DNA from: an uncultured archaeon
GTDB lineage: Archaea > Asgardarchaeota > Lokiarchaeia > Sigyniarchaeales > SOKP01
Reading direction: 5' to 3'
NCBI GenBank assembly: GCA_964388035.1
Contig: CAYLZE010000003.1
Coordinates: forward strand, 32,001 to 96,000
DNA: 64,000 nucleotides
Shown here: positions 50,350 to 53,712 of the stretch, piece by piece
Position numbering within the stretch: position 1 is the first letter of the stretch
Layout of the letters: every line of letters begins with the position of its first letter
Translations under genes and position numbers: made by a program
The notes under the pieces: generated by a model
Databases searched by the model: none
What the model saw: the letters and a program-made list of their open reading frames with translations, nothing else
What the model was told of the DNA's origin: nothing

Positions 50350-50598
50350 ATGACTGAAAATGAAGAACTGGAGTTTGATGAAGAATTAGATACACGAGGT
50401 TTATTTTGCCCAGAACCTTTGTTTGAGGTGCGAAATCTTTCTGAAACTCTTGAAGTAGGACAATGTCTCAAGGTCTTAGCTGATGATCCCGCTGCGGAAG
50501 AAGATTTTAAAAGATGGGCGAAAAGAACAGATACTGAAATTATGAAATTTATAAAAGAAGGAGACGATCTAGTCTTTTACTTTAAGAAGAGAAAGTAA
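50350..50598 (+). CDS. tusA: TusA-family sulfur carrier
   Basis: LDTRGLFCPEP, VLADDPAA..D...W. Confidence 0.92.
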   Translation: MTENEELEFDEELDTRGLFCPEPLFEVRNLSETLEVGQCLKVLADDPAAEEDFKRWAKRTDTEIMKFIKEGDDLVFYFKKRK

Positions 50599-50697: not shown

Positions 50698-51891
50698 ATG
50701 AATGTCTATTTAGATTATCAAGCAGCAAAACCCGTGGATGAAAGGGTTTTGAATGAAATGTTGCCTTTTTTCAGAGAAACATACGCTAATCCAGCGAGTC
50801 TGCATTGTGAAGGGGATATAGCAACTACTGCTTTAGACAATGCAAGAAAAAAGGTGGCTTCTTTCATTAATGCTCCAGATCCTGAAAGCATTATCTTTAC
50901 TTCTGGGGCTACTGAATCAAATAATCTTGCATTAATTGGTGGAGCATTAAGAAATAAAAGAAAAGGAAATCATATCATCATTTCAGAAATAGAACATATT
51001 TCGATCTTAAATATTGCTAAATATTTAGAAAAAGAAGGTTTTAGGATAAGCAAAGTACCAGTAGATCAATATGGAATTGTAAAACTTGAAAAATTAAAGC
51101 AATTAATTACGAATGATACAATTTTAATCTCAGTAGCAGGGGCTAGTAATGAAGTGGGTTCTTTGCAACCCATAAAAGAAATTAGCGAAATTGCTTCTGA
51201 GAAGAAAATTCTATTTCATTCGGATGCTTTAGCTCTAGAACCAACAGTTCCAATTGATGTACAGAAAGTTCCTTTCGACTTACTAACTCTTTCTTCTAAT
51301 GATATTTATGGACCGAGAGGAGTAGGTGCATTATATTTAAAAAAAGGCCAGAGGGTGAATCCTGTATTGATTGGAGGAGGACAAGAAGAGGGGATGAGAT
51401 CGGGTTCCCATGATATGCCGGGGATAGTAGGATTTGGTAAAGCTGCTGAAATCATGACGAAAGAAATTGATGGCGAGGCGAGACATTTGAAAGGTTTCAG
51501 AGATCAACTAATTGATGGCGTTTTAAAAGGTATACCCAATTCGCATCTTAATGGGCATCCAGAAAAAAGAGTACCGCATAATGCACATTTCAGATTTGAT
51601 TTTATAGAAGGAGAGTCATTAATATTAGGATTAAAGGATGAATTTGTCGCAGCAGCCACTGGGTCGGCTTGTTCCTCAAAGACACTCGAACCTTCCCACA
51701 CGCTAATTGCAATGGGATTATTGCATGAAGAGGCTCATGGCAGTTTAGAACTTACTCTGGGCCGATATACGGAACAATCTGATATTGATAAATTAATAAG
51801 AGTATTACCAGGAATTGTAAAAAGATTACGAATCCTCTCGCCTCTCACCCCCCCTGATTTATTAAAATATTATAATGAGGTGAAAAAATAA
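50698..51891 (+). CDS. iscS: IscS-like cysteine desulfurase homolog (PLP Lys replaced by Asp)
   Basis: YLDY, YANPAS.H, FTSGATESNN, IEH, SSNDIYGPRG, GGGQE, GSACSS. Confidence 0.92.
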   Translation: MNVYLDYQAAKPVDERVLNEMLPFFRETYANPASLHCEGDIATTALDNARKKVASFINAPDPESIIFTSGATESNNLALIGGALRNKRKGNHIIISEIEHISILNIAKYLEKEGFRISKVPVDQYGIVKLEKLKQLITNDTILISVAGASNEVGSLQPIKEISEIASEKKILFHSDALALEPTVPIDVQKVPFDLLTLSSNDIYGPRGVGALYLKKGQRVNPVLIGGGQEEGMRSGSHDMPGIVGFGKAAEIMTKEIDGEARHLKGFRDQLIDGVLKGIPNSHLNGHPEKRVPHNAHFRFDFIEGESLILGLKDEFVAAATGSACSSKTLEPSHTLIAMGLLHEEAHGSLELTLGRYTEQSDIDKLIRVLPGIVKRLRILSPLTPPDLLKYYNEVKK

Positions 51892-51893
51892 GT

Positions 51894-52694
51894 ATGAATA
51901 TGAAATCTACCCAATATTCGGATAAAGTAATGGAACATTTTCGGAACCCACGCAATGTTGGAGTAATAGAAAATCCCGATGGTTATGGTAAAGTAGGAAA
52001 TCCAGTATGTGGGGATATCATGGAGATGTTCATAAAAGTAGGAAAGAACGATAAAGGAGAAGACATTATTGAAGATATTAAATTTAGAACCTTTGGTTGT
52101 GGTAGCGCGGTTGCAACCTCATCAATGACCACGGAAATGGCAATTGGAATGACTTTAGATGATGCATATAAGATAACTCGCGCGGATGTCGCAGAAGAAC
52201 TCGAGGGACTACCACCGATTAAAATGCATTGTTCTAATTTAGCAGCAGATGCGTTGAAAGCAGCAATTGATAATTATCGGACAGGGAAAGAATCTACGAT
52301 AGTAGCTCCCGTCTCGTGCCAAACTACCGAATTACATGTAATTTTGGGTTTGGATGAATTTCTGGGAAAAGGAGTGTATAATGAAGTAAAAAATTTAGAT
52401 GAATTTAAAGACAAGCGAGTCTTGGTAGTTGATACGGGAGATGAATCTGTTAAGACTGCTGTTGAATTAACCGAACACACGGGACGTGTCATTTTAATGA
52501 CATCGGGTACTAACCTTCCAGGAAACGAAGATCTACAGAAAAAATTAAAACGCTCAGACGTAAAAATTTTGTACCAATCAGAATTAATGGAAGTCCAAGG
52601 AACAAATGATATTGAAAAGGTCATCATCCATGATTTGGATGAAGATGAGCAATATGAATTATTCATAGATTCTCTGATAATATTTCAAAAATAA
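51894..52694 (+). CDS. iscU: IscU/NifU-N Fe-S scaffold fused to a thioredoxin-reductase-like C-terminal domain
   Basis: YSDKVMEHF.NPRNVG, NPVCGD, FGCGS, KMHCSNLA; C-terminal DEFLGKGV...FKDKRVLVVDTGD resembles the TrxB NADPH domain. Confidence 0.9.
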   Translation: MNMKSTQYSDKVMEHFRNPRNVGVIENPDGYGKVGNPVCGDIMEMFIKVGKNDKGEDIIEDIKFRTFGCGSAVATSSMTTEMAIGMTLDDAYKITRADVAEELEGLPPIKMHCSNLAADALKAAIDNYRTGKESTIVAPVSCQTTELHVILGLDEFLGKGVYNEVKNLDEFKDKRVLVVDTGDESVKTAVELTEHTGRVILMTSGTNLPGNEDLQKKLKRSDVKILYQSELMEVQGTNDIEKVIIHDLDEDEQYELFIDSLIIFQK

Positions 52695-52863: not shown

Positions 52864-53712
52864 ATGATAATATGGATAATCGATAGCACATCGGGAGTAA
52901 AATTGCTCTATTGGGCGAATAGGTCCGTTATAAATATTGATGAAGATCTAATCTCGGGATTATTAACTGCATTTCATCGTTTTTCTGTAGTTGAATTTCA
53001 ACAAAATTTAGAATCCATAGAAATGGGAGGATTAAAGTGGATTTATCAACAAGAACCCGAATATAACTTGATGTTCGTAGCTGCTGATAATAAAGATATC
53101 AAAACCGAGATTTTAACAGCTAGATTATATATAATTAATAAAATATTCTTGGATAAATATAAGGATTTATTCAAAACAAGGGGTTCTAGTTGGGAGGGAA
53201 ATTTTAATGTGTTTACCCCCTTTATAGATATTTTGGAATCTTACAATGCTCAATGGGACGAAACAAATGATATAAACCAAGTGGCTGAAATTTATGATAT
53301 TTTGCGGATTTTCCAACAGATTTTTATTATTTTAGGAAATTTATTACGCAATAGAATGTATCAAAAATCCCAAAATCGAATTTTAAGCGAAATAGAGAAA
53401 GATTTTGGTAAATTAATGAAAAATGAGAAATTTAATGAGCAATTTAATAAGCAAAACGTGTCGTTTTCAAAAATAAATTGGTTTGATCTTGAGGACATTA
53501 ACCTAATCAAAACTAATAAATTTTTACTTTTAGATTTTTTAAAATCTTTATTAGTCCTTATTATAAATGCTTTTAGAAAAGTAAAAGGCAATGAATATTG
53601 TTTTAAATATTTTAGTGAAGAGAAAATTTTTCTATATTTATATCAAAATATGAATTTAATTAAAGATCTTAACTTGGACTTATTTTTTCTAAAAAACTTC
53701 TTATTATTATAA
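52864..53712 (+). CDS. Longin-like domain protein with helical C-terminal extension
   Basis: MIIWIIDSTSGVKLLY...DEDLISGLLTAF..F...ESIEMGG. Confidence 0.7.
   Translation: MIIWIIDSTSGVKLLYWANRSVINIDEDLISGLLTAFHRFSVVEFQQNLESIEMGGLKWIYQQEPEYNLMFVAADNKDIKTEILTARLYIINKIFLDKYKDLFKTRGSSWEGNFNVFTPFIDILESYNAQWDETNDINQVAEIYDILRIFQQIFIILGNLLRNRMYQKSQNRILSEIEKDFGKLMKNEKFNEQFNKQNVSFSKINWFDLEDINLIKTNKFLLLDFLKSLLVLIINAFRKVKGNEYCFKYFSEEKIFLYLYQNMNLIKDLNLDLFFLKNFLLL

Follow-up and report, generated by a model that had tools for sequence, protein, structure and literature searches.

A relic reductase domain fused to the IscU scaffold protein of Lokiarchaeia and Thorarchaeia

Introduction

The archetypal archaeal Fe-S cluster assembly system of the minimal (MIS) type is the IscS-IscU pair of A. 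fulgidus (4eb5, 4eb7). It is encoded by an adjacent two-gene core, its IscS has an Asp in place of the PLP-binding Lys, and the IscU chain in the crystal comprises about 135-138 residues with no C-terminal domain. A 2026 review states that it is not known which electron donors serve the minimal archaeal assembly systems, MIS and SMS (PMC13066941). A precedent for building a redox domain into an IscU-type scaffold is found in the same review: NifU consists of IscU-like, ferredoxin-like and Nfu domains, and its added domain is a functional [2Fe-2S] ferredoxin-like module (PMC13066941).

Two families of flavoenzymes are also relevant to the locus described here. TrxR-like ferredoxin-NADP reductases (FNRs; 2zbw, 3lzw, 6gar) are two-domain FAD enzymes of about 310-340 aa which carry the GGGDSA and HRR motifs and lack the CxxC motif. 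Low-Mr thioredoxin reductase TrxB (TIGR01292) possesses the FAD domain, CxxC, GxGxxA and HRR.

This work concerns a stretch of 64,000 nucleotides from the genome of an uncultured Lokiarchaeial archaeon (contig CAYLZE010000003.1), referred to below as the window. It contains an iscU gene whose product is about 61-63% identical to A. fulgidus IscU and is encoded next to an IscS with the same Lys to Asp replacement (SSND in the window), but which, unlike the A. fulgidus protein, continues into a C-terminal domain. The added domain also differs from that of NifU in being flavoenzyme-derived and in having lost its cofactor domain. It shares the fold of the NAD(P)H domain with TrxR-like FNRs (TM about 0.9, 25-29% identity) and is CxxC-less like them; only this inserted domain is kept, attached to IscU. 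Among named families, TrxB scores best for residues 127-263, and its central domain has the same fold, whereas none of the four TrxB features listed above is present in the window's protein. Below, we describe the protein, its distribution and probable origin, and discuss what the added domain may be doing.

Organisation of the operon

All three genes of the operon are located on the + strand. The first one (50350..50598) codes for a TusA-like sulfur carrier (PF01206, E 7e-18). It is followed by an iscS/misS homologue (50698..51891; PF00266, E 9e-69), in which the PLP Lys is replaced by Asp within the SSND sequence and the Cys loop GSAC is intact. The iscU-fusion gene (51894..52694 according to the ORF list, 266 aa) starts 2 bp past the end of iscS. 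Its product is laid out as a complete IscU, a disordered linker with a single Cys (C142) and a 116-aa domain. The peptide quoted in the first-pass annotation, which was made from the sequence alone, is present in the translation of ORF 51894..52694(+), and the limits given there are correct: 52317 is the first position of the Cys142 codon (52317-52319), and the stop codon ends at 52694.

The operon consists of TusA, IscS and IscU genes only, without HscAB, Fdx or IscA, as expected of a minimal MIS locus. The flanking ORFs are unrelated and not conserved; in particular, the ORF that comes next downstream (52864-53712) matches no family and shows no conservation.

The arrangement of TusA, IscS and IscU-fusion genes is conserved in the genomes of Lokiarchaeia, Thorarchaeia and Jordarchaeia. 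A TusA gene precedes IscS in 12 of the 14 wider loci from these genomes, and the adjacency of IscS and IscU is kept in nearly all loci examined. Outside the window's family, a DsrE-like gene (PF02635) lies between TusA and IscS in most Lokiarchaeial and Thorarchaeial loci. In Candidatus Methanoperedens, which has a related fusion (see below), a DsrE-like gene (PF02635) is located directly upstream of IscS; in the window's genome, a tblastn search found no such gene.

SSND is present in all 16 aligned IscS proteins of Asgard operons and in 5/5 of those from Methanoperedens, and the Cys loop is intact in these proteins. One could imagine that the decay of the reductase part described below tracks the loss of the PLP Lys from IscS. 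Since SSND is found in every operon IscS, including those encoded beside full-length fusions in Jordarchaeia and Methanoperedens, reductase decay does not track IscS chemistry, and this explanation was rejected.

The IscU scaffold domain and the linker

Residues 7-130 (51912..52283) match the NifU_N profile (PF01592) with an E-value of 3e-46 and a score of 157 bits (cut-off 22), as well as TIGR03419 with a score of 194.4 bits, above the curated cut-off of 187.9. The cluster ligands C39, C69, H112 and C113, together with D41, are invariant in 52 relatives. Foldseek search with the N-terminal half of the model retrieved IscU 7c8m at 70% identity and also A. fulgidus IscU (4eb5). Judged by these sequence features (profile scores, ligand residues and an adjacent IscS-type partner), the product of ORF 51894-52694 is a bona fide IscU/MisU.

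When the whole protein is modelled with AlphaFold (pLDDT 83), two well-folded domains are seen, separated by a low-confidence stretch covering residues 134-147. As the linker is disordered, the relative placement of the two domains in this model is uncertain. The flexible linker itself includes residues 131-148 (52284..52337; pLDDT 40-45) and carries Cys142.

Fold of the C-terminal domain

The domain following the linker (residues 149-266, 52338..52691) can be described as a relic NAD(P)H domain of a TrxR-like ferredoxin-NADP reductase, based on the profile matches, fold, phylogenetic tree and dN/dS values presented here and below. Residues 127-263 match positions 95-232 out of 300 in the thioredoxin reductase model TIGR01292 (E 1.8e-14); this match is only partial in length, and its score of 53.3 bits compares with a curated cut-off of 343.45. 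Pyr_redox_3, FMO-like and Pyr_redox profiles match the C-terminal domain more weakly than TIGR01292. Sequence search against PDB placed the Thermus TrxR-like protein 2zbw at the top (E 1.3e-8), followed by FNR and TrxR entries.

Structural comparison leads to the same families. Modelled alone, the domain reaches pLDDT 95 and superimposes on the NADPH domains of TrxR and FNR with TM of 0.88-0.92 (Foldseek); the C-terminal half of the whole-protein model also retrieves TrxR and FNR. A Z-score structure search, independent of Foldseek, aligned all 116 of 116 residues with residues 129-246 of the Sulfolobus TrxR 3f8d (Z 19.4, rmsd 1.5 A). 3f8d is tied with AhpF and B. subtilis FNR, and other flavoenzymes with two dinucleotide-binding domains drop to Z of 12-15. 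Search of the ESM Atlas yielded generic Pyr_redox fragment clusters only. The domain does adopt the TrxB-type NAD(P)H-domain fold which the first-pass annotation had proposed from a motif comparison and for which it had suggested a structural check.

Loss of the catalytic and cofactor-binding motifs

In alignments, the position of the GGGDSA motif is occupied in the window's protein by DTGDES (residues 180-185, 52431..52448), a degenerate version of the dinucleotide-binding loop that replaces GxGxxA, and the position of HRRDxFR, which contains the HRR site for the 2'-phosphate, reads MTSGTN. YNEVKNL stands in place of the TrxR CxxC motif, and there is no Cys anywhere in the domain. Neither half of the FAD domain, the N-terminal one with GxGxxG or the C-terminal one with the GD motif, has a counterpart in the window's protein, which stops at the point where the chain would re-enter the FAD domain. 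The absence of GxGxxA, HRR and the FAD domain, noticed earlier from the sequence, is therefore borne out by the alignments; the case of CxxC is different and is considered together with the origin of the domain. As the FAD domain, CxxC, GxGxxA and HRR are all missing and the score is far below the family cut-off, the protein does not belong to the TrxR or FNR families.

The dinucleotide-binding loop is neither glycine-rich nor conserved among Lokiarchaeial and Thorarchaeial orthologues, where it reads DTGDES, ENGEKT, EYDQKS, FKGDIS, YTSEET or HTGDKS. The first Gly of GxGxxA is represented by D, E, H, Y or F depending on the orthologue, and the HRR position is likewise variable. Because the loop differs between orthologues, binding of NAD(P)H is unlikely. 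Fifteen residues are invariant across Lokiarchaeia and Thorarchaeia: G152, K159, G160, R175, L177, A189, L192, R198 and V199 in the first part of the domain, and S221, G236, E241, E250, Y254 and D259 further on. G152, K159-G160, R175, A189, G236 and D259 are also present in full-length fusions or stand-alone relatives, and S221, E241 and E250 belong to a signature common to Jordarchaeia. No new conserved pocket is evident among these invariant residues. We infer that both NAD(P)H and FAD binding have probably gone from the relic domain.

The mentioned signature, RSD..VEKV..HDLxEDE, is common to the Jordarchaeial and truncated forms, and stand-alone enzymes do not have it. It ends with an acidic beta-hairpin, HDLDEDE in the window's protein (residues 246-252, 52629..52649) and HDLGEDED in the Jordarchaeial full-length fusions, which is absent from stand-alone FNR-like proteins. 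D249 and E250 of the hairpin are invariant in alignment A1, and E250 is invariant across Lokiarchaeia and Thorarchaeia in alignment A2.

Distribution of the fusion

When the C-terminal part was used as a query against 5.8 billion proteins, 171 proteins matched. NifU_N was present in all of the 120 matches listed; most of these proteins are 255-273 aa long, and the named sources among the matches listed are Lokiarchaeota or Promethearchaeia. A six-frame search was also carried out in 400 genomes of the phylum, where strong matches (E 1e-25 to 1e-58) correspond to open frames of about 260-290 aa. Of the 134 genomes from the window's own family, about 114 gave such matches, and so did each of the six further Lokiarchaeial families sampled and about 73 genomes of Thorarchaeia.

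Two cultured Asgard archaea are among the carriers. By exact look-up, the orthologue from Lokiarchaeum ossiferum is UYP44078.1, annotated as 'Ferredoxin--NADP reductase', and that from Prometheoarchaeum syntrophicum is QEE15270.1, annotated as 'scaffold protein'. The former name is misleading. In the genome record of Freyarchaeum, the reductase part of the full-length fusion described in the next section appears as a 326-aa 'NAD(P)/FAD-dependent oxidoreductase' from which the IscU part is missing.

The first-pass annotation had left room for a chimera unique to this assembly. Its presence in most genomes of Lokiarchaeia and Thorarchaeia and in the two cultured species answers this doubt. Moreover, short contigs from three other salt-marsh sequencing runs cross the domain junction with zero differences. 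The architecture, which the first-pass annotation did not recognise, turns out to be common across both classes; at the same time, no description of an IscU-reductase fusion, either truncated or full-length, was found in our survey of the literature, most of which lay outside subscription journals.

Some apparent variants were discarded. The 391-aa 'extended' form in locus L036 is an ORF-finder artefact that results from an upstream start overlapping iscS. Many of the short 'stand-alone' matches in the representative library are gene fragments whose start lies within IscU (MHCSNLA...), and apparent chimeras account for a few.

Full-length fusions and origin of the relic domain

Two types of full-length fusion were found. 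The homologue from Jordarchaeia/Freyarchaeum, present in 6/6 genomes, is 448 aa long, with NifU_N in front and a complete Pyr_redox_2 enzyme (E 3e-44) behind it. It has an intact FAD loop, GGGPAG, and an intact GD motif, the NAD loop reads GNG[DE]QA (GxGxxA is kept), HRR is changed to YKEKD, and there is no CxxC. The second type, 443-444 aa in length and with intact GGGNSA and HRKDELRA, was revealed by a profile search among 1.84 billion representatives. A genome scan located it in about 30 Candidatus Methanoperedens genomes, directly behind a lysine-less IscS.

Both types resemble the window's protein in the IscU domain (about 66-72% identity) and in having a lysine-less IscS as a partner, and their NAD domains form the sister group of the relic domain. 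They differ from it in keeping both FAD halves (GGGPAG, GD motif), neither of which exists in the window's protein; the Methanoperedens fusion also keeps GGGNSA and HRK, and the window's protein has neither of these. With such sets of motifs, the full-length fusions are probably active flavoreductases.

Among stand-alone proteins, the closest relatives are TrxR-like, lack CxxC, measure about 310-325 aa and come from Thor-, Hod- and other archaea; the presence of GGGD[ST]A and HRR marks them as FNR-type enzymes. A maximum-likelihood tree of the NAD domain was built on 116 domain columns. It has the topology (Methanoperedens-type, (Jordarchaeia, truncated Lokiarchaeia plus Thorarchaeia)) with supports of 95/88, 97/85 and 100/100. 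All IscU-fused domains form one clade (95/88) within the CxxC-less group, the split between this group and canonical TrxR is supported at 100/99, and canonical TrxR falls outside. A long stem (0.99) leads to the truncated clade, whose inner branches are short. By its place in the tree, the relic domain descends from the CxxC-less FNR-like branch.

This placement modifies the earlier reading of CxxC. The motif is indeed absent from the window's protein, but it was not lost in the lineage of Lokiarchaeia and Thorarchaeia, as the nearest relatives and the full-length fusions already lack it. Since the fusion clade nests among CxxC-less FNR-like enzymes and full-length fusions are CxxC-less too, CxxC was never present in this branch.

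The simplest history includes three steps. A single fusion of IscU to an FNR-like enzyme would have come first, followed by the decay of the NADPH site; finally, both FAD half-domains would have been deleted before the split between Lokiarchaeia and Thorarchaeia. The reverse order is implausible, because the two FAD half-domains would have to be gained around an orphan NAD domain. The first-pass view of a repurposed Rossmann module holds in so far as the domain has neither catalytic nor cofactor motifs, but this module was not recruited alone: it is the remnant left after the FAD halves had been deleted from an IscU-reductase fusion.

A missing FAD domain could also be supplied by a separate gene, so that the reductase would be split rather than truncated. 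No gene for an FAD domain alone was found in the window's own genome by a TIGR01292 scan. One TrxR-like gene, on contig C26, seemingly lacks the NADPH domain, but a 100-N scaffold gap is located there, which makes it an artefact. Partial matches on contigs C58 and C32, considered as FAD partners, are pieces of unrelated flavoproteins.

Selection, charge and the flexible cysteine

Median pairwise dN/dS, calculated from 64 pairs with dS between 0.05 and 1.5, is 0.13 for the domain versus 0.07 for the IscU part. Identity of the domain between Lokiarchaeia and Thorarchaeia is 47-53%, within a range similar to that of TusA from the same operon (44-56%). The low dN/dS and the nearly constant presence of a flexible Cys (see below) indicate that the domain is functional. 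Given this purifying selection, it has probably been retained for a non-redox role.

The acidic character ascribed to the domain by the first-pass annotation is usual: net charge is -12 in the window's protein and from -3 to -20 in most orthologues. As it is 0 in one of them, so that the whole range extends from 0 to -20, 'acidic docking' cannot be a universal property of the family.

The lone linker cysteine pointed out earlier is there as well. Outside the IscU core the protein has no Cys other than Cys142, which is located in the stretch with pLDDT of 40-45 and does not vary among 52 family members. Of 121 parsed proteins, 116 have a Cys in the linker, about 12 residues ahead of the domain in Lokiarchaeia and 3 residues ahead of it in Thorarchaeia. 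The family of L. ossiferum and P. syntrophicum has a linker without Cys and a Cys in the C-terminal tail instead (3/3 loci and three further proteins). In TrxR-type folds, the strands entering and leaving the NADPH domain adjoin each other, so that the tail Cys would come out close to where the linker Cys does. Two family representatives do not have any extra Cys, and in the full-length Jordarchaeial forms it is not consistently present. Because of these two representatives and the three different positions, the role of Cys may be dispensable or coincidental.

Possible role of the relic domain

We expect the gene product to act as the Fe-S scaffold of a minimal (MIS-type) TusA-IscS-IscU system. 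In the full-length enzymes, electrons could pass from NAD(P)H via FAD to the scaffold, which would correspond to the role of ferredoxin and its reductase in ISC systems. In Lokiarchaeia and Thorarchaeia this electron supply may have been given up or replaced, with the leftover domain being kept for a non-redox role. Such a domain would bind neither flavin nor NAD(P)H and would perform no redox chemistry. As a tethered, mostly acidic module it could dock onto the IscS-IscU complex or its partner or regulate them, and the Cys in the flexible segment at its foot probably takes part in the handling of sulfur or a nascent cluster. Overall, we favour the view, with a probability of roughly 0.55, that the relic domain serves the IscS-IscU machine as a docking or regulatory module without redox activity.

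The most attractive specific version of this reading is the one where the mobile Cys handles sulfur or a cluster. Stated in its strict form, it says that the domain serves to position a mobile Cys arm, which acts either as a persulfide acceptor (from TusA, DsrE or the Cys loop of IscS) or as an extra or exchange cluster ligand, and thereby replaces chemistry that is impossible for a lysine-less IscS. The near-universal linker Cys, its invariance in the window's family and the appearance of a tail Cys, expected to emerge beside the linker, where the linker Cys is absent are in line with this proposal, as are the sulfur-relay proteins encoded in the operon and the IscS without the PLP Lys. On the other hand, the position of Cys shifts between Lokiarchaeia, Thorarchaeia and the family with the tail Cys, two representatives manage without it, the Jordarchaeial full-length forms are inconsistent in this respect, and the reach of the arm to the IscU site is an assumption. 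We therefore regard the strict form as rather unlikely to be correct.

Oligomerisation, nucleotide sensing and a split reductase are all less likely than a docking or regulatory role. TrxR-type enzymes dimerise through their FAD domain, that is, through the very part which has been lost, and this speaks against an oligomerisation module that would pair two IscU molecules so that two [2Fe-2S] clusters are more readily coupled, by reduction, into a single [4Fe-4S] cluster. Such a module nevertheless has some appeal, as the IscU part is 70% identical to Methanothrix IscU crystallised as a holo dimer (7c8m) and the dimer-interface residues Y8, F64, D41 and K110 (named in PMC13066941) are invariant or nearly so; we consider it improbable. 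Even less probable in our opinion is a sensor of redox or energy state that gates cluster assembly and has retained the ability to bind a pyridine nucleotide or a related ligand. In favour of a sensor, nothing of the Rossmann-like fold has been lost, and the loop usually has Gly in its third position, with Ser/Thr following, but the replacement of the first Gly of GxGxxA by five different residues and the unconserved HRR position are hard to reconcile with nucleotide binding, and the invariant residues of the pocket are core and ancestral ones only. Finally, the probability that the domain is an artefact or a decaying remnant (a chimera, a frameshifted neighbour or a pseudogenised tail) is negligible: we found no supporting point for it, the ORF is continuous in hundreds of genomes of two classes, including closed genomes of cultured strains, independent contigs cross the junction, and dN/dS of 0.13 is not that of a pseudogene.

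Returning to the docking or regulatory reading, we can speculate on how the full-length and truncated forms may relate to each other in function. The full-length fusions of Methanoperedens and Jordarchaeia could be self-contained NAD(P)H-driven scaffolds, and the Lokiarchaeial and Thorarchaeial domain with its mobile Cys could be a docking or hand-over site where an external donor (ferredoxin, a reductase or the TusA/DsrE sulfur relay) delivers electrons or sulfur to IscU. We put this combined proposal forward tentatively, as possible rather than probable.

Implications

If the full-length fusions are indeed driven by NAD(P)H, the electron donor of archaeal minimal Fe-S systems would be identified. 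If the truncated form provides a hand-over site, it would add to Fe-S biogenesis a new accessory module that is specific to the archaea most closely related to eukaryotes. The proteins form a graded natural series, from an intact NADPH flavoreductase in Methanoperedens, through an altered nucleotide site in Jordarchaeia, to a cofactor-less relic in Lokiarchaeia and Thorarchaeia, and this series makes the question of the electron donor directly testable.

The gene family also exposes annotation errors, as in the name of the L. ossiferum protein and in the Freyarchaeum record, and shows that a domain may stay under purifying selection even when the catalytic domain it was paired with has been deleted. 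The relic form is the IscU encoded beside IscS in most of the Lokiarchaeia and Thorarchaeia genomes searched, including those of two cultured species, and accounts of Fe-S biogenesis in the archaeal relatives of eukaryotes must include it.

Neighbourhood of the operon

In most Lokiarchaeia and Thorarchaeia loci outside the window's family, a DsrE/DsrF-like gene (PF02635) is located between TusA and IscS (for example, L032:2922-3296, L038:6969-7343 and L057:2338-2820, with 8 further loci), and in Methanoperedens such a gene lies upstream of IscS. In the window only 100 bp separate TusA from IscS at the place where other loci hold this gene, and a tblastn search of the window's entire genome found no DsrE/DsrF-like homologue. 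The IscU fusion is directly followed by a 282-aa ORF on the forward strand (52864-53712), which matches no Pfam family and is absent as a conserved neighbour of the operon elsewhere.

Related, aberrant and misannotated genes

The window's genome holds two further distant IscU/SufU-like genes (contig C12:55644-55991 and contig C24:17019-17390), which share 39% and 33% identity, respectively, with the IscU portion of the fusion; both lack the fusion's C-terminal domain. On contig C26, a TrxR gene that comes after a protein-disulfide-oxidoreductase-like gene appeared in profile scans to lack the NADPH domain. We rejected this candidate, as its appearance is produced by a 100-N scaffold gap inside the gene (L047:1403-1502).

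A 534-aa ORF of genome G130, a 66% complete MAG, joins a complete IscS to only the last ~65 residues of the relic reductase domain, with IscU missing in between (L034:3645-5249). Either the deletion is genuine or the contig is misassembled. Family f16 is otherwise devoid of the fusion, but one of its genomes, G074, carries a copy close in sequence to those of the window's family (C463:2085-2459; E 2e-46, 60% identity). The copy sits on a low-ranked contig (numbered 463, in an assembly of 460 contigs) and resembles a binning contaminant or a gene transferred recently.

Public annotation of two IscU fusions is misleading. The relic-domain IscU of L. ossiferum (L033:4557-5399) is named 'Ferredoxin--NADP reductase', and the only record found for the Freyarchaeum contig is a 326-aa 'NAD(P)/FAD-dependent oxidoreductase', whereas the reading frame of this full-length fusion (L031:4224-5570) begins at a TTG codon, runs uninterrupted for 448 aa and takes in IscU.

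IscS without the PLP lysine

In the IscS of the window operon, Asp replaces the Lys expected to form the Schiff base with PLP (motif SSND, within residues about 197-211, window 51286-51330), while the Cys loop GSAC is intact. SSND together with an intact Cys loop was found in all 16 aligned Asgard operon IscS sequences and in 5/5 Methanoperedens operons (loci among L031-L044 and L051-L080). Such uniformity across both groups indicates that the lysine-less IscS is a trait common to the entire clade bearing IscU-reductase fusions.
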